64,000 nucleotides of DNA, taken from contig CAYGYG010000009.1 in the NCBI GenBank assembly GCA_964354155.1, forward strand, positions 6,053 to 70,052, given 5' to 3'. The stretch comes from an uncultured bacterium. GTDB lineage: Bacteria; Hydrothermota; Tepidihabitantia; SM23-42; CAYGYG01. The position numbers and the translations under genes were made by a program. Below the pieces are notes generated by a model. The model had not been told where the DNA came from. It searched no databases and saw only the letters and a list, made by a program, of their open reading frames with translations. Position 1 is the first letter of the stretch. Every line of letters starts with the position of its first letter. Shown here piece by piece: positions 1 to 36,310 of the stretch.

Positions 1-303
1 CTGTCAGTCGAAGACGGGGCTTCCGGCGCGGCGCCGACGCCGCGACTCCGGCTCTCGCCCAACCCGTGCGGTTCGCGCGCGAACTTCACCTTCGTTTTGC
101 CGGCGGGGGTTGATTATCGGATCGTTCTGTTCGATGCGGTCGGTCGCCGGGTCAGGATTCTCGGCGGGCAATCGGCCGGCGGCAATCAAAGCATCGCCTG
201 GGATCTAAAAGATGCGGCGGGAACGCGGGTGCGGCCCGGCGTCTATCTGTACCGGTTCGATGCCAGAGGGCTGAAGCAGAACGGCGATATCATCGTCAAC
301 TGA
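1..303 (+). CDS. C-terminal fragment of secreted protein with FlgD-Ig/T9SS type A-like sorting domain (5' end outside window)
   Basis: Frame open from base 1: ...LSPNPCGSRANFTFVLP...LFDAVGRRVR...WDLKDAAGTRVRPGVYLY, the typical sorting-domain pattern. Confidence 0.8.
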   Translation: MSVEDGASGAAPTPRLRLSPNPCGSRANFTFVLPAGVDYRIVLFDAVGRRVRILGGQSAGGNQSIAWDLKDAAGTRVRPGVYLYRFDARGLKQNGDIIVN

Positions 304-31061: not shown

Positions 31062-31988
31062 CTACTGACCTTCCTGATGGCGTTTCAGCAGTCGATCCCA
31101 CTTGAAGTCAAACTCGGCTTGAATGCGATCGATCATCGCCTGGTCCTTGGCCTTGAAGATGTGGGCAAACCGGTCCTGAATCTTCAGGAATTCGACCACG
31201 GGTTTCTTTTCTTTGGGCATGATCGAAATGCGGTACTTCCGGTTCTCATACTCATAGAGCGGCCAGAAGCAGGTTTCCACTGCCAACCGGCTTATATCGA
31301 GTGTTTTCTCCGGAGGATAGCCCCAGCCCAGGCGGCAGGGCGAAAAGATGTTGATGAAACTGGGTCCATCGGTGGCCAGTGCTTTCCGGACCTTGGTTAC
31401 GAGGTCGTTCCAGTAGGCGATCGTGGCCTGGGCCGCATAGGGGATGTCATGGGCGATGATGATTTCGGTAAGATCCTTGCGCGGCTGCATCTTGCCGGGG
31501 ATGACTTTGCCCGCTACCGAAGTCGTCGTGTGGGCGCCGGTCGGCGTTGCCGAGGAACGCTGAATGCCCGTGTTCATGTAGGCCTGGTTGTCGTAGCAGA
31601 CATAGAGCATGCGGTGACGCCGTTCAATCGCGCCGGACAGAGCCTGAATCCCGATGTCGTAAGTGCCGCCGTCGCCGCCCACCGCGATGAAGTCGATGTC
31701 CTTGGTGATTTTGCCCATTTTCTTCTGCGCCCGGTAAGCCGCTTCGACCCCGCTGATTGTTGCCGCAACGTTCTCAAAGGCGTTGTGGATATAGGGCACC
31801 TTCCATGCCGTGTACGGGAAGATCGTGGTAACGACTTCGGCACAACCGGTAGCCAGGCCGACCACAACCGGGCGTTCTGCGGCCAACAACACCTGGCGCA
31901 GTGCGATCGTGGCGCCGCAGCCGGCACAGGCGCGATGACCGCCGGCCAAAAGGTCGGTTTTCTTTGCCAGTTCTCGCAAGTTCGCCAT
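31062..31988 (-). CDS. porB: Pyruvate:ferredoxin oxidoreductase beta subunit
   Basis: GHRACAGCG, TGCAEV, GGDGGTYDIG...YDNQAYMNTGIQ TPP-binding motif. Confidence 0.93.
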   Translation of the reverse strand: MANLRELAKKTDLLAGGHRACAGCGATIALRQVLLAAERPVVVGLATGCAEVVTTIFPYTAWKVPYIHNAFENVAATISGVEAAYRAQKKMGKITKDIDFIAVGGDGGTYDIGIQALSGAIERRHRMLYVCYDNQAYMNTGIQRSSATPTGAHTTTSVAGKVIPGKMQPRKDLTEIIIAHDIPYAAQATIAYWNDLVTKVRKALATDGPSFINIFSPCRLGWGYPPEKTLDISRLAVETCFWPLYEYENRKYRISIMPKEKKPVVEFLKIQDRFAHIFKAKDQAMIDRIQAEFDFKWDRLLKRHQEGQ

Positions 31989-31989
31989 A

Positions 31990-33159
31990 TCAGCTCCTTA
32001 CCCCGTAATAAGTGATCGGGGCGGTTACCTTTCCTTGGTTCCGGATATCAAACAGCTGCCGGTAGATTTCCTTGATATCCTCAATGCTGATATCGCGTCC
32101 GCCCAGTCCGTAGACGTAGTTGGCCAGCAACGGCTTGGTCGGCTCGTCGTAGAGGATCGAGCGTGTTTCAATGTAGAGCTGGCCGCCGTTGGTCGAAAAG
32201 CTGTCGGAGCGGTCCATGACCCCGACGACTTTGAGTTTCTTGAGTGCGGCCTTGAGCATGGCGACGGGAAAGGGACGAAAAACCCGGAGCTTGATAAGGC
32301 CGGCCTTCTTACCTTCCCGGCGTAACTCGTCGACCGCGATCCGTGCAGTGCCGACGGTCGAACCCATTGCCAGGAGCGCGACTTCGGCGTCCTCACAACG
32401 GTATTCCTCGAGAATGGGATAACCGCGCTTGAAGCGCTGGCTGAACTGTTTGTTCACTTCCTCGATTGCCGGCAGAACATGGTTCATGGCGTCGATCTCC
32501 GACATCTTGTGCTCGAAGTAGTAGTCCTGTAAATCAAGCCCACCCACGGTGAAGGGTTTGTCGACGTTGAGCAGCGAGTACTTGGCTTCCCGCGTGCCGA
32601 CGAAGCTCTTCACGGCTGGGTCATCAAGCAATTCGATGTTCTCCATGGCGTGGCTGATGATGAAACCGTCGATGGTGATCATTACCGGGAGCAGTGTCTT
32701 CTCCGCAATCAGCACGGCCTGAAGGACCGAATCATATGCTTCCTGCGTACGCTCGGTCAAGATCTGAATCCATCCCGCATCCCGGGCACCCATCGAATCA
32801 GAGTGATCACAGTGGATGTTGATGGGGCTGGAAAGCGAGCGGTTGACCAGGCAGAGGACGATGGGCAGTCGCAAACCGGCCGCGATATAGAGAATCTCAT
32901 ACATCAGGGCCAGTCCCTGGGAGGAAGTCCCGGTCATAACCCGGGCTCCGGCCGCCGCCGCACCAACACATGCGCTCATCGCCGAATGCTCGCTTTCAAC
33001 CGCGACATACTCGGTATCCACCTGGCCATTGGCGACAAAGCCAGAAAAGATCTGGACAATCTCGGTGGCGGGGGTAATCGGATATGCGGCGACGACGTCA
33101 GGGTTGATCTGCCGCATGGCCTCGGCCATTGCTTCATTGCCGGTTCGTGCGACAATCAT
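31990..33159 (-). CDS. porA: Pyruvate:ferredoxin oxidoreductase alpha subunit
   Basis: GNEAMA, YPITPAT, ESEHSA, TSSQGL; start MIVART after GGAGG. Confidence 0.93.
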   Translation of the reverse strand: MIVARTGNEAMAEAMRQINPDVVAAYPITPATEIVQIFSGFVANGQVDTEYVAVESEHSAMSACVGAAAAGARVMTGTSSQGLALMYEILYIAAGLRLPIVLCLVNRSLSSPINIHCDHSDSMGARDAGWIQILTERTQEAYDSVLQAVLIAEKTLLPVMITIDGFIISHAMENIELLDDPAVKSFVGTREAKYSLLNVDKPFTVGGLDLQDYYFEHKMSEIDAMNHVLPAIEEVNKQFSQRFKRGYPILEEYRCEDAEVALLAMGSTVGTARIAVDELRREGKKAGLIKLRVFRPFPVAMLKAALKKLKVVGVMDRSDSFSTNGGQLYIETRSILYDEPTKPLLANYVYGLGGRDISIEDIKEIYRQLFDIRNQGKVTAPITYYGVRS

Positions 33160-33443
33160 TTGACCTCCCTTTCCATGGTAATCGCGTTGGCCTTGGGCGG
33201 ACATTCATAGGCGCAGATGCCGCAGCCTTTGCAGAAGTCATAGTCGATCCCGGTGACCTTGCCGTTTTCCACGATGATTGCCGAATCCGGGCAGTAGATC
33301 CAGCAGAGGTAGCACTGGACGCACTTGTCTTTATGCCAGATCGGCCGCTCGCTGCGCCAATCGCCGGTTTTGAATTCTCGCGACGTACCGCCTTCGGGGA
33401 TGACACAGCCGATCTCGAGTTCGGTCCATTTCTTGAGCTTCAT
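33156..33443 (-). CDS. porD: Pyruvate:ferredoxin oxidoreductase delta (ferredoxin) subunit
   Basis: KTGDWR; two CxxCxxCxxxCP motifs. Confidence 0.93.
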   Translation of the reverse strand: MKLKKWTELEIGCVIPEGGTSREFKTGDWRSERPIWHKDKCVQCYLCWIYCPDSAIIVENGKVTGIDYDFCKGCGICAYECPPKANAITMEREVK

Positions 33444-34018
33444 CCTTCAATGACCTCCTCATAGGCTTTCTCGATGGCCTTGACGTTACCGTCGACGATC
33501 TGCGGCCGGCCCGGGAATTTCTTCTCAAGTTTCCCGCGCACCGACTTGACAGTCTCTTTGAAGTCGAGGATCCGGGTAACCTTGATCATGGCCCCGAGCA
33601 TCGGGGTGTTGGGGATGTCGCGACCCAGTATTTCCTTCGATATCTTGCTGGCATCGACGACATAGATTTTCTGCTTCTTGCCAAGATTGAGTTTCTTACG
33701 AAGAACGTCGGGCTTGTCCTGAGTATTGATAAGAAGAACGCCGTCCTCTTTCAAGCCATCGGTGACCGGGACGCTGGCAATCAAGCTTGCGTCGAGAATC
33801 ACCACGATGTCCGGATTTTTCACGCCGCAGTGTTGGAAGATCGGCGCGTCCGAAAGCCGATTGAACGCCTGGACCGGCGCACCCATTCTTTCCGGACCGT
33901 ACTCCGGAAACCCCTGGATGTGCTTTCCGGTGTCCATGGCGGCATCGGCAAAGAGCAGTGCCGCGGTTTTGGCCCCCTGGCCACCCCGGCCGTGCCACCT
34001 AATCTCTAAAAGAGCCAT
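33440..34018 (-). CDS. porC: Pyruvate:ferredoxin oxidoreductase gamma subunit
   Basis: EIRWHGRGGQGAKT, FPEYGPERMGAP, NTPMLGA. Confidence 0.93.
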   Translation of the reverse strand: MALLEIRWHGRGGQGAKTAALLFADAAMDTGKHIQGFPEYGPERMGAPVQAFNRLSDAPIFQHCGVKNPDIVVILDASLIASVPVTDGLKEDGVLLINTQDKPDVLRKKLNLGKKQKIYVVDASKISKEILGRDIPNTPMLGAMIKVTRILDFKETVKSVRGKLEKKFPGRPQIVDGNVKAIEKAYEEVIEG

Positions 34019-34183: not shown

Positions 34184-34211
34184 ATTATACTCGGATTATC
34201 CGATTTGTCAA
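34184..34211 (-). promoter_or_regulatory. sigma70-type promoter of por operon
   Basis: TTGACA-N16-TATAAT. Confidence 0.75.
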
Positions 34212-34334: not shown

Positions 34335-36287
34335 CTATCTCAGTAGAATCACCTTTTCCGTTTTCTCTGTTTCCAGGGTAGTCAGCCTCAGGAAATAGAC
34401 GCCTTTGGGCAGATCACGGCCGCGGTCATCGGTGCAATTCCAGTCAAGAACTGTTGTCGTACTGGATATCATTCGGCTCAGGTTGCGCACCAGCCGGCCG
34501 GCAGGGTCATAGACCCGCAGGCTGGCTTTCTGGCCAGCCGGGACCTGAAGGTTGATCATCAGCCGATTTCGGGCGGGATTGGGATAAGCCGAGAAGACCG
34601 GCCGGGAAAGACGGTCTGGCGAATCGGTCTCGATCGCGGTCATCAGCGTCGGGGGCCAGGTTGTGTATTTGAGCGCCCGGGCGGTGGTGATGGGCACGGC
34701 GTACTCGTGGTAAGCTCCTTCGTAGTAGTACTGGAGACCGACACTGCAGCCGTAGTTCTGGATGCCGACCGTGTTGCTGGTCAGGTGCATGGCTTCTTTG
34801 TACTGAACGATGATCTCACCATCACCGGTTGGGGTCGGATAGTAGGCCGGGTCATAGAGAATGATCTCGAAGGTCTCAGGATAGCCGGTCTGACTCAAGT
34901 GTTCGACCTTGAACCATTCGGCAATAAACCGGTGCCGCGTGGCATCATTGTAGTAGTAGACGTCACCCGGGCCGACGGCAGGAGGATAGAGGTCATCCCA
35001 GATGCCGCAGACCACGGCGGGTGGGGCTTGGGTATTGGGCAGGGGCGTGTTGGTCCAGGTGGTGAGGGTTGTCGAGCCGAGGGCGACCCAGCCGTTGGAG
35101 CAAATCGAAACCTGGGTGTAGTTGTTGCCATAGTACTTGAAGGTGAAGGGTAGATTGATGACGAATGTCTGATCGTCCCCCGGATCGAGCGAAACACCCT
35201 GGTTTACCGTCTGGCTTGTATCGATCGGAAACCACGAGTAGACCGGGCATTGCCGCCATGGACCTCCCGAATGGTAGCTGTAGTAATACCCGGTGTCGCT
35301 CGGCGGAACCGAACCGACCATCAGCTGAAAGTCGAACGTATCGGCCCAGGTGTTCTCGCGCGCGATGATGCGGAACGGTGCCTTGTGGCCGAGCGGGCAG
35401 CTGGAAAGGGCCTGCACCCCATAGCGGTCCGCGCTGTTCTCTTTGGTGCTGTCGATCAATAACGAACCGAAATTGCCGCTGTTGTCGGTAATGGTAACGT
35501 AGGGTGAGGTAGTGGAGATCGTCGAAGCCAGGTTGATGAAGCTGCGGCCGCCGATGTTCTTCAAAAAGGCGGTAAGGGTGGCCGTCTCGCCTGGATCCAG
35601 CTTGCCGTTATTGTTGCCGCCGGTGTCGTAGACCTTTGTTTTGATGAAAGAGAGAAAGTACTGCTGCCCAAGATAGTTGAGTGCTGCGTCGTCGGCGAAG
35701 ACCTTCGCCTTTTCGAGAGCACCTCAACACGTATGGGCACAACTGTCAAAGAGTGCAACCCTGACTTTCTTCACCTGGGCCGGAACAACGCCCGGCAGAT
35801 TGGCCAGTTCGGTTCTAAGATTGAACGAATAGGTATGCCAGAGCGTATCGGCAGCCGGAATCAGGTGCTGGGTGCTAGTGTTGCGCCAGGCGCACGGTGT
35901 CGTGAAACGGCAGATCCGAGTCGCGCCCAGAACCGTGCCGCTCGAGTTAAAGTAGGAAAGGATTACCGCCGCCGCGGCCCAGCAGAGAGTGTCCGCGTCG
36001 TTGTCATAGGCATAGAGTTTGGCCTTAATCGAGAATGAGAAACTGTCGACCGAGGTGATGTCAATCGTCTGCCACAACTGTGTGTAGCCACCAGAGTACT
36101 TGTACGCGTAAGCTTCGTAGTCCGGGTCCGGTTCATAACCCGTGGCCCGGTTAACGGTATCATATAGCGACGGAACGTATGATTGCCAGCCAACCGCAAG
36201 GTCTTCCTCGAATCCGGGATTGGCGAGGAAATTGCCGGCGGCGACCAGCCCGATGCACAGTACGACCAGAAGGATAGTCGGCCTCAT
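34335..36287 (-). CDS. Putative secreted selenoprotein (650 aa, Sec188): signal peptide, CBM-like jelly-roll, nidogen/C25-associated-like region, FlgD-Ig/T9SS-A sorting domain
   Basis: ORF-track ORFs 35724..36287 and 34335..35564 are in the same frame and separated only by TGA at 35724-35726 (...SCAHTC-U-GALEKAKVFADD...); SECIS-like hairpin follows. Confidence 0.78.
35678..35726 (-). promoter_or_regulatory. Bacterial SECIS-like element
   Basis: UGA-N14-GGCGAA-GGUC-UUCGCC; apical loop 20 nt after UGA; lower stem GUGCU/AGCAC. Confidence 0.72.
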
Positions 36288-36310
36288 TTACACCTCCTTG
36301 TTTCCTTGAA

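Follow-up and report, generated by a model that had tools for sequence, protein, structure and literature searches.

The gene described here lies on the minus strand of a 64,000-nucleotide stretch of DNA from an uncultured bacterium (the window) and consists of a single frame of 650 codons, running from an ATG at 36287 to a TAG at 34337–34335 (Table 1). Its sole interruption is a TGA at codon 188. Under translation table 11 the locus is called as two ORFs, 35724..36287 (187 aa, ATG start) and 34335..35564 (409 aa, TTG start), and the 159 nt (53 codons) that link them contain no stop. The 650-codon frame confirms the reading of an earlier note, made from the letters alone, in which the two ORFs form one frame broken by TGA with the 53 linking codons open. 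The same note had described the downstream ORF as having only a TTG start without a ribosome-binding site, and inspection of the sequence by eye likewise reveals no Shine-Dalgarno-like motif in front of this internal TTG. The peptide surrounding the recoded codon reads ...VALFDSC183AHTC187-U188-GALEKAKVFADD.... Sequencing support for the TGA, another point the note had raised, comes from contigs of four metagenome runs belonging to four studies, one of which may be the source sample; all agree at 35724–35726 without any difference, and a sequencing error at the TGA is therefore excluded. The four runs consist of DNA, and none of the runs listed was of RNA. The terminator-like hairpin downstream of the stop codon was read directly from the sequence and is not among the output of the promoter/terminator pattern scan.

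Table 1 Features of the selenoprotein gene candidate, in coordinates of the window.
Feature	Position	Strand	Evidence
Complete gene, probable selenoprotein	34335..36287	-	650 codons plus TAG stop, one in-frame TGA; full length matches homologues in related genomes, one TGA each
Shine-Dalgarno-like GGAGG, 5 nt upstream of ATG	36293..36297	-	Read from sequence
Predicted signal peptide, residues 1–18 (MRPTILLVVLCIGLVAAG then NF...)	36234..36287	-	Hydrophobic N-terminus in 17/17 aligned homologues; residues 1–20 low pLDDT; cleavage site placed by eye
N-terminal CBM-type β-jelly-roll, residues ~19–207, with Sec188	35667..36233	-	AlphaFold model m55bf0f578500, pLDDT 92.9; VIA, Foldseek
UGA codon 188, probably read as selenocysteine	35724..35726	-	TGA in all but one of the phylum N-domain matches listed and in 65 distinct aligned sequences
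SECIS-type hairpin GGCGAA-GGUC-UUCGCC, 14 nt 3' of UGA	35694..35709	-	Encodes A-K-V-F-A of the last jelly-roll strand
Ig-like β-sandwich, residues 208–330	35298..35666	-	Model; VIA Z 10–11 to HAP2 domain III, sialidase Ig and MG domains
Middle domain, residues 331–566, all-β	34590..35297	-	Model mf5023985acdd, pLDDT 80.2
T9SS type A C-terminal sorting domain, residues 568–647	34347..34586	-	PF18962 42 bits (cut-off 27); TIGR04183 45.3 bits (cut-off 23)
Terminator-like hairpin ACGGGGCAC-GGTT-GTGCCCCGT then A-TTTTTTT, 20 nt past stop codon	34286..34315	-	Read from sequence

The predicted structure of the read-through product, which the earlier note had proposed as a check, displays a high-confidence fold with an N-terminal jelly-roll resembling those of carbohydrate-binding modules (CBMs). 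Model residues 15–207 match CBMs with VIA Z values of 13–15 (rmsd 2.6–3.6 over 137–156 residues), and the Foldseek matches include CBM16 (E 5e-6), CBM4, FBA and MAM. In the model, Sec-188 occupies a surface loop (residues 185–191) connecting the final two strands of the jelly-roll, and the last strand, 'KVFADD' (residues 192–205), comes after the UGA, in agreement with the earlier proposal that the 'VFADD' strand closing the jelly-roll is located beyond this codon. The β-jelly-roll fold is predicted to be the same as in CBM16, CBM4, CBM22, CBM61, CBM70 and porphyran- or alginate-binding modules, and the Sec domain displays further CBM-like traits in its N-terminal N-G-D-F-E motif and in a large number of aromatic and polar positions that are conserved. 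Sequence similarity to 5x7o is weak and concerns its C-terminal CBM-like domain (E 9e-5), and Pfam returns no family for residues 1–330 at E <= 0.1, hence no CBM family membership by sequence; we therefore refer to a CBM-like fold and claim no membership. Jelly-rolls of this type also include enzymes, as seen among the VIA matches, and carbohydrate binding by the Sec domain is a prediction. We know of no CBM that contains Sec.

The Ig-like domain that follows is common to many T9SS C25 peptidases and subtilases. The middle domain is also present in many TGA-free paralogues of 900–1350 aa, and for its residues 326–566 neither Foldseek against PDB (E <= 0.001) nor Pfam gave a match. The score of the C-terminal sorting domain exceeds the curated cut-offs, and the domain has about 130 matches in the genome, which also encodes PorU (455 bits; cut-off 420). 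The three marks by which a T9SS type A cargo is recognised, namely the sorting domain, a signal peptide (here by inspection) and PorU in the genome, are thus all found, and the combination of signal peptide and Por_Secre_tail/FlgD-Ig-like sorting domain is held in common with type A cargo such as gingipain and Omp28-type surface proteins. This architecture is the one the earlier note had outlined, with a signal peptide and a FlgD-Ig/T9SS-like sorting domain.

A search of the phylum, candidate division WOR-3, with residues 1–216 as the query identified a match in 107 of 272 genomes, with a family copy number of up to about nine per genome. The source genome contains four paralogues, each with a TGA. 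Among the N-domain matches listed, all but one have an in-frame TGA and one carries two. Sec falls in one alignment column across 68 parsed loci, which comprise 49 distinct 24-residue contexts with identity down to about 34%. The residue preceding Sec is Cys in 38 of these contexts, Gly in 10 and Ser in one, while C183 is not conserved across the family. The CxxxC-U motif noted initially therefore stands only for its second half: Cys187 before Sec is common, although not universal, whereas C183 is particular to one protein. Conserved residues include C132, H141, W134 and R124; some of them, C132 and H141 among them, persist in Sec-less homologues, and the scaffold therefore has a role for which Sec is not strictly required. 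Six TGA-less homologues were seen among the matches listed (P0007, P0010, P0038, P0115, P0126 and L084); Ala, Asp, Pro, Val or a gap is aligned to U in these proteins, and Cys in none of them. They are distant, Sec-less paralogues and not a sign of nonsense mutation. Public gene calls recovered by the near profile search (58 hits) include 28 proteins of 179–196 aa and 21 of 329–466 aa, which are read as N-terminal and C-terminal fragments, respectively; one hit spans 90% of the query and is a 636-aa Sec-less protein. A single-protein search for longer homologues found no Cys-containing or full-length form, which is weak evidence, and a profile search for longer proteins retrieved, among its best hits, only proteins sharing the Ig-like domain. 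As these searches list their best hits, Cys-containing forms may occur elsewhere.

The machinery for Sec incorporation is encoded in the same genome. The selA gene (C1:191094–192188) adjoins selB (C1:189131–191020), and a cluster on contig C7 comprises a second selB, a tRNA-Sec (73.5 bits) and a Sec-containing selD; both of the two selD copies in the genome contain Sec. All of selA, selB, selC and selD, the genes by which the earlier note had wished its reading to be judged, are thus present, with selB and selD in duplicate. Within WOR-3, all taxonomic families having the Sec-protein gene also have selA, and the 15 families named in the tallies with no selA match (74 genomes) have no match to the gene. 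At the level of taxonomic families, the selenoprotein family therefore occurs only where Sec machinery exists. Four gene-positive genomes have no selA match, two of which possess a clear tRNA-Sec (G223, 77.6 bits; G030, 75.1 bits).

These observations bear on the possibility that UGA-188 is a real stop, yielding a 187-aa secreted fragment with or without a separately initiated C-terminal protein, with the hairpin acting in termination, pausing or regulation; a variant invokes near-cognate read-through without Sec. Every public gene call found does split the family at the UGA. However, the 187-aa product would, according to the model, miss the final strand of the jelly-roll, the frame is open and conserved past the UGA in all homologues, and no conserved start or ribosome-binding site is found downstream. 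Moreover, the loop and spacing of the hairpin are those of a SelB-binding element, and neither a real stop nor Sec-independent read-through would require selA, yet the gene is confined to families with selA. A real stop is thus considered very improbable.

The hairpin was located in the earlier note as starting 14 nt after the UGA, and it is confirmed at 35709–35694. Together with the same TGA, it is found again in 65 distinct homologous sequences, which is far beyond chance, and these sequences formed the set for its comparison. They display 14 stem variants, with the full six pairs in 64 sequences and five pairs in one, and an apical loop that is GGTC in 64 and GGTT in the remaining one. The spacer between UGA and hairpin measures 14 nt in 55 sequences, 11 nt in seven, 17 nt in two and 20 nt in one. 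Pairing is observed in 99.7% of 390 cells, compared with 18–64% when the partner is slid, with compensatory changes at four of the six pairs and 22 cells altered on both sides. The observed value was reached by none of 500 shuffles, and RNAalifold predicts the identical helix. Paired changes may be synonymous (GCG/TTC to GCA/TTT), and the first stem pair changes from G-C to A-U or C-G through the preceding third base together with GCC to GCT or GCG. Other variants involve linked amino-acid swaps that preserve pairing, with AAG/TTC encoding K/F, GAG/TCC encoding E/S and AGG/CTC encoding R/L. Homologues with a TGA and a conserved downstream hairpin, the comparison the earlier note had called for, are thus found and display covariation. 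The element has the properties by which a bacterial SECIS is recognised: a 3' stem-loop with G in its apical loop, at a suitable distance from the codon and supported by covariation. Rfam gives no match at E <= 10 within 35500–35900.

A scan of the genome for TGA followed by 11, 14, 17 or 20 nt, a 6-bp stem and a GGTC loop recovered the four family paralogues and four other sites. The latter were dropped, with C7:33356 lying in a short 39-codon frame and C7:33640 in another frame, together with the sites on C11 and C18. In the selD and Omp28-like genes of this genome, which also encode selenoproteins, the structures downstream are different and lack a GGUC loop; the hairpin is thus specific to the family rather than a consensus across the genome. 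The match of the AGGUCU loop to Escherichia coli fdhF, pointed out at the outset, is borne out by the same context in the K-12 record (NC_000913.3), and the two elements are further alike in the in-frame UGA, the short coding-region hairpin and the GGUC loop. In contrast, the upper helix follows the UGA by 11 nt in fdhF and by 11–20 nt, mostly 14, in the WOR-3 family, and the WOR-3 stem is a perfect 6-bp helix whereas that of fdhF has a bulged U, as we read it from the fdhF sequence. The WOR-3 protein is also unrelated to formate dehydrogenase, its SelB binding is predicted and its genome has two SelB paralogues.

As the hairpin is located wholly inside the coding sequence for a conserved β-strand, and Sec-less homologues retain a similar A-x-V/A-hydrophobic-A-D-D/N pattern, its conservation could in principle reflect nothing but protein-level conservation of the AKVFAD strand. 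Compensatory changes at synonymous sites contradict this, as do the radical linked swaps (K/F to E/S) that preserve pairing. Apart from the pattern, Sec-less homologues vary freely in this region, and L084, read as DNA, has no GGUC hairpin. With a perfect stem in 64 of the 65 TGA-bearing sequences, a purely protein-driven hairpin was rejected as scarcely credible. A pseudogene, arising by nonsense mutation or by a sequencing or assembly error in the source genome, would equally present a single in-frame stop dividing an otherwise intact gene, but its probability is negligible and it was rejected on the phylum-wide conservation of the TGA, on its presence in all four paralogues of the genome and on the agreement of the metagenome contigs. 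Some candidate phyla recode UGA and WOR-3 is an uncultured lineage, but genome-wide reassignment of TGA to a standard amino acid (code 4 or 25) without Sec was rejected as practically impossible: TGA closes 633 of 1578 frames of at least 300 codons and is otherwise the commonest stop in the genome, some WOR-3 family genes themselves terminate at TGA, no internal stop is found in selA, selB, PorU or many paralogues of >1000 aa, and in-frame TGA is restricted to specific conserved sites.

Thus, the selenoprotein gene is very probably genuine, with UGA-188 decoded as Sec through SelB and the GGUC hairpin in an exported CBM-like family of WOR-3. The selenoprotein reading of the earlier note is supported overall, and the tests that it named on Sec machinery, on conservation of the TGA and hairpin, on the predicted structure and on read support came out in its favour.

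Mammalian thioredoxin reductase possesses a C-terminal Gly-Cys-Sec-Gly redox centre. The WOR-3 family displays a similar vicinal Cys-Sec followed by Gly (C-U-G) and, by analogy, could form an eight-membered selenenylsulfide ring. In contrast to the flexible C-terminus that bears the thioredoxin reductase motif, the WOR-3 motif is positioned in an internal β-sandwich loop of an extracytoplasmic protein with no flavoprotein domain, and its redox role is hypothetical. No NCBIfam or Pfam model matches the Sec domain (seven proteins were scanned against NCBIfam at E <= 1, the full protein matching only T9SS/FlgD-type C-terminal models and six diverse N-domains matching no family). The 119 families tabulated in a 2026 review (PMC13188914) include none that resembles it, as far as the available text of that review extends. 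Within the same limits, the earlier view that the architecture is unlike known bacterial selenoprotein families holds. The available portions of this review and of the deep-Sep paper (PMC12013277) do not describe the WOR-3 Sec family, and unvalidated candidate lists elsewhere could include it. Literature searched by title and abstract yielded no report of a selenoprotein as T9SS cargo.

Two groups of predicted selenoproteins in the accessible part of the review invite comparison. The bacterial CU-motif families SaoL, SaoC, HgcA, MbdU, KCU-star and Csac_0668 are computationally predicted, and several are extracytoplasmic or metal-related (PMC13188914). The Cys-Sec dipeptide of these families is shared by 38 of the 49 WOR-3 contexts. 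When compared through the available review table and NCBIfam models, the WOR-3 family differs from them in its fold, in its T9SS export and in the Gly or Ser that replaces Cys in 11 of 49 contexts. The second group comprises extracytoplasmic predicted selenoproteins, namely the FCYXU-type TonB-dependent receptor, the DUF1573 UGC protein, DsbA/DsbG-like proteins and SaoB/SaoX (PMC13188914). As described there, all are exported, like the WOR-3 protein, with Sec beside or near Cys. They have other folds, with no HMM match, and in the accessible account most have Cys homologues, whereas none was seen for the WOR-3 family.

In 28 of 61 related genomes, an Omp28-like (PF11551) gene for a UxxC T9SS protein, its TGA conserved, lies on the same strand 279–1390 nt upstream of the Sec-protein gene. 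In the source genome the two genes are not adjacent but about 35 kb apart. In the proposed mechanism, SelB with Sec-tRNA(Sec) would bind the 6-bp GGUC-loop hairpin 14 nt past UGA-188, leading to the insertion of Sec and the synthesis of a 650-aa preprotein. As the hairpin also codes for the last strand (AKVFAD) of the modelled jelly-roll, RNA and protein constraints are superimposed on the same nucleotides. The signal peptide would export the preprotein and the type A sorting domain would then take the protein through the outer membrane via the type IX secretion system, as suggested by the domain matches and the machinery of the genome. The exposed selenol of the jelly-roll may then serve as a reactive centre at the cell surface or in the extracellular space, pointing to extracellular selenol chemistry.

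As to what this centre does, there is a good possibility that Cys-Sec forms a redox-active (selenenylsulfide) site served by the secreted UxxC Omp28/thioredoxin-like selenoprotein, with the jelly-roll holding on to a polymeric substrate while its disulfide, polysulfide or similar bonds come under attack. It is rather unlikely that the Sec site captures a soft metal, metalloid or sulfur species, and distinctly more so that it is a purely structural cross-link. More broadly, and tentatively, WOR-3 may export a set of T9SS selenoproteins for extracellular selenium chemistry, comprising the CBM-like Sec protein, the Omp28/thioredoxin-like UxxC protein and, apparently, C25 (gingipain-type) peptidase homologues with Sec in place of the catalytic Cys. 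The CBM-like protein would then be a novel type of catalytic or capturing module, in which a polymer-binding jelly-roll offers a Cys-Sec selenol for attack on disulfide, polysulfide or metal-bound substrates at the cell surface, and the secreted UxxC partner would recycle it. Under this proposal Sec would be indispensable to the CBM-like family, since no Cys-containing counterparts are seen, and may be a main reason why the phylum keeps its Sec machinery.

Almost all bacterial selenoproteins described so far are oxidoreductases that act inside the cell or in the periplasm and have homologues with Cys, a Cys/Sec pairing on which prediction pipelines lean. The WOR-3 family stands apart in its CBM fold, its T9SS export and the absence of any Cys-for-Sec counterpart among the homologues seen, a combination that would explain why public calls split into pieces of about 187 and 440 aa. 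With the present reading, hundreds of genes in an uncultured phylum receive a corrected annotation. The family also provides an exceptionally clean natural case of a SECIS superimposed on a structural β-strand, with coupled amino-acid swaps driven by the RNA, and it points to extracellular selenium biochemistry in WOR-3.

The minus strand of the window from 36287 to 34335 translates as one 650-codon frame whose sole interruption is a TGA at 35726–35724 (codon 188). The peptide around this UGA reads ...VALFDSCAHTC-U-GALEKAKVFADD... and a perfect hairpin, GGCGAA-GGUC-UUCGCC, lies 14 nt 3' of the TGA at 35709–35694. Frame, peptide and hairpin are thus as described in an earlier note, which proposed a secreted selenoprotein with a CxxxC-U motif and an fdhF-like SECIS. 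Under translation table 11 the gene is split into a 187-residue ORF, with an ATG start and GGAGG upstream, and a 409-residue ORF starting at a TTG 53 codons downstream. The gene appears to be monocistronic. Its stop codon is followed by a terminator-like hairpin and then by a separate, perfect sigma-70-like promoter (TTGACA-16-TATAAT) for downstream oxidoreductase genes. The downstream ORFs may, at a guess, encode 2-oxoacid:ferredoxin oxidoreductase subunits.

A genome-wide reassignment of TGA is rejected, since more long frames end in TGA (633 of 1578) than in either other stop codon and large genes are devoid of internal stops. A sequencing artefact is likewise rejected because Logan contigs of four metagenome runs from four studies, one run possibly being the source sample, all cover 35724–35726 and leave the codon unchanged at 96–100% identity, while differing at neighbouring sites such as 35733. 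At the latter position the contigs of three runs (X2, X3 and X4) display A>G and those of the fourth (X1) break exactly there. This pattern points to strain variation at a distance of 7 nt from the Sec codon.

The TGA is conserved among homologues. A six-frame whole-genome search of 60 relatives with the complete gene returned dozens of matches. Those covering the N-terminal 200–330 residues contain one in-frame TGA each, bar one row with two; those limited to residues about 220–650 contain none and represent paralogues of 900–1350 residues with the Ig-like, middle and sorting domains. Four paralogues in the window's own genome each carry a TGA. With residues 1–216 as query, 107 of the 272 genomes of the phylum (candidate division WOR-3) were matched, and all but one of the matches listed possess an in-frame TGA (two in one row), at identities down to about 34%. 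In the 68 parsed loci U occupies one single alignment column. The preceding residue is Cys in 38, Gly in 10 and Ser in 1 of the 49 distinct local contexts, while Gly follows U in 37. Cys is therefore absent before U in 11 contexts, and in 6 no Cys lies within five residues, thus identifying Sec itself, rather than a Cys-Sec pair, as the invariant feature. Of the proposed CxxxC-U motif the U is kept in the family, whereas C183 is peculiar to the gene under study.

A conserved hairpin follows the TGA in 65 distinct sequences, which were taken from −6 to +57 around the codon and aligned with MAFFT. The stem, of which 14 variants occur, comprises six perfect pairs in 64 sequences and five in the other. 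All loops but one read GGTC (64 sequences), the exception being GGTT, and the spacer between TGA and stem measures 11, 14, 17 or 20 nt in 7, 55, 2 and 1 sequences, respectively. On this alignment 99.7% of the 390 helix cells are paired, against 18–64% when the 3' partner is slid. Two-sided changes occur at four of the six pairs (22 cells), 0 of 500 shuffles attain the observed paired percentage, cell count or covariation score, and the same helix is predicted independently by RNAalifold. Some compensatory changes are synonymous on both sides (GCG...TTC to GCA...TTT), and the first stem pair varies through the preceding third base together with synonymous GCC to GCT or GCG changes. Linked stem swaps that alter the protein are also found, namely AAG/TTC (K,F), GAG/TCC (E,S) and AGG/CTC (R,L); apart from RNA pairing, little could readily account for a Phe-to-Ser change in a predicted β-strand that occurs solely alongside Lys-to-Glu. 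The GGTC loop is absent from the corresponding place in L084, the sole TGA-less paralogue read at the DNA level, and Rfam holds no family matching the element. In the E. coli K-12 fdhF record the TGA is followed by 11 nt and GGTTGCA-GGTC-TGCACC, whose GGUC loop and AGGUCU context are those of the present hairpin, as stated in the earlier note.

The window's genome is 99% complete and encodes selA, two selB, tRNA-Sec (selC) and two selD. One SelB paralogue adjoins selA and the other precedes tRNA-Sec and the Sec-containing selD. A second tRNA-Sec match is located on contig C21, at its edge. Contig C7 carries two copies of TGACTCGA.., each followed by 14 nt and a 6-bp stem closed by a GGTC loop, one at C7:33356 in a 39-codon frame and the other 284 nt away at C7:33640 in another frame; they precede the second selB by about 3 kb.

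Coordinates of features in the window and on contigs (C) of its genome
Feature	Coordinates	Remarks
Promoter-like site	window 34184–34211, minus strand	between terminator-like hairpin and downstream genes
Downstream ORFs	window 33440–34018, 31990–33204, 31062–31988	preceded by the minus-strand promoter-like site; identity guessed from N-terminal sequences
Middle all-β domain	window 34590–35297	residues 331–566; recurs in many TGA-free paralogues of 900–1350 residues
Omp28-family UxxC T9SS gene	C9:5276–6349 (window 1–297)	mostly left of the window; ends at window start
Further Omp28-family UxxC T9SS genes	C7:58244–59272; C33:16440–17432	
selA and adjacent selB	C1:189131–192188	
Second selB, then tRNA-Sec and selD	C7:36812–40060	tRNA-Sec 73.5 bits; selD with its own in-frame TGA
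Second Sec-type selD	C7:28794–29696	
C25/PorU peptidase-core homologues	C26:35480–36964; C26:37000–38469	outside the window; tandem, T9SS-tailed, one in-frame TGA each

Across the phylum the gene follows selA by taxonomic family, the gene and selA being matched in 16/16 and 16/16 genomes of family f3, 39/44 and 42/44 of f7 and 23/31 and 29/31 of f2, with no match to the gene in the 15 named families without a selA match (74 genomes). Four gene-positive genomes have no selA match; tRNA-Sec is clear in two (G223 and G030) and borderline in G010, and none passes the cut-off in G163, which is 76% complete. selA is found about 0.4–10 kb from the family gene in G039:C137, G037:C1, G021:C48, G165:C37, G162:C59 and G014:C233 (genome:contig). 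The conserved UGA, the covarying SECIS-type hairpin, the Sec machinery and the co-occurrence with it support the selenoprotein interpretation, and the gene is very probably a genuine selenoprotein gene in which UGA-188 would be recoded to Sec.

The model of residues 1–330, folded with a 62-row alignment (pLDDT 92.9), displays a β-jelly-roll (residues about 19–207) and an Ig-like sandwich (208–330). Sec-188 is positioned in the loop 185–191 connecting strands 174–184 and 192–205. In the model the last jelly-roll strand is thus encoded after the UGA, where the earlier note had placed it, and by the hairpin itself. VIA-align relates the fold to a porphyran-binding CBM, CBM16, a hyaluronan-binding module, CBM4 and phage tailspike CBM-like domains (Z 13–15), and Foldseek matches include CBM16, CBM4, FBA and MAM domains. 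A profile search of PDB sequences gave a single weak match, the C-terminal CBM-like domain of 5x7o, and Pfam and NCBIfam gave none in the N-terminal 330 residues. Residues 326–566 are modelled as an all-β fold (pLDDT 80.2) with no match in Foldseek PDB or Pfam searches. A possible lead on this middle domain is the precomputed NIDO (PF06119) label often borne by long C25 peptidases with the same Ig-like domain. Residues 568–647 form a T9SS type A sorting domain above curated cut-offs, in agreement with the FlgD-Ig/T9SS-like domain expected from the sequence, and the genome encodes PorU and about 130 sorting-domain matches. These strong models suggest that Sec would be exposed in a surface loop of the CBM-like domain and that export would proceed via the Sec translocon and T9SS.

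Many proteins of about 184–196 residues were among the matches of an exhaustive representative search, and of the 42 aligned fragments of this size 31 have the Cys before the UGA as their last residue; homologues from a word-index search are likewise split into fragments of about 187 and about 440 residues. Few proteins span the Sec site, namely P0010 (GC-A-EGHC), P0038, P0115, P0126 and the chimeric-looking P0007, and no Cys is aligned to U in these or in L084. P0010 is the counterpart of the 'GC-U-xGHC' subfamily (L088 and L090) with Ala in place of U. Conserved residues kept in Sec-less forms include E27, W34, D54, Q73, W150, C132 and H141. Homology-based selenoprotein searches have missed the family, for which its lack of Cys/Sec pairs would account. 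Among the 119 families and subfamilies in the table of a 2026 review of prokaryotic selenoproteomes, none has the architecture or motif context of the gene (PMC13188914). The curated selenoprotein models of NCBIfam release 20 matched 0 of 7 tested sequences, and full-text literature searches yielded nothing relevant linking selenoprotein or selenocysteine to T9SS, type IX secretion or WOR-3. The CBM-like Sec gene is therefore regarded as a new selenoprotein family, its architecture being, as had been claimed, unlike that of the known bacterial families in these sources.

When match positions were compared by hand, 28 of 61 related genomes proved to have an Omp28-family (PF11551) gene on the same strand as a CBM-like Sec gene and 279–1390 nt upstream of it. 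The product of this gene, which likewise contains a conserved TGA, combines an N-terminal thioredoxin-like UxxC motif with a T9SS tail. The three copies in the window's genome all lie away from the gene under study. Judged by sequence, these proteins are a second predicted family of secreted selenoproteins. In the peptidase homologues on C26 the TGA context is G[W/R]G-U-G..YFDD, downstream of a C/S-H-G motif, and a putative Sec seems to take the place of the catalytic Cys found in gingipain-type peptidases; a C25-type Sec peptidase family is absent from the review table (PMC13188914).

The favoured but tentative proposal for the Sec of the CBM-like domain is a redox-active selenol or selenenylsulfide, which the secreted UxxC protein encoded nearby might recycle. 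Capture of a soft metal or sulfur species is somewhat less likely, and a structural cross-link is improbable. The recoding mechanism is ordinary; what is unusual about the family is its fold, its route of export, its expansion across the phylum and its lack of Cys counterparts.
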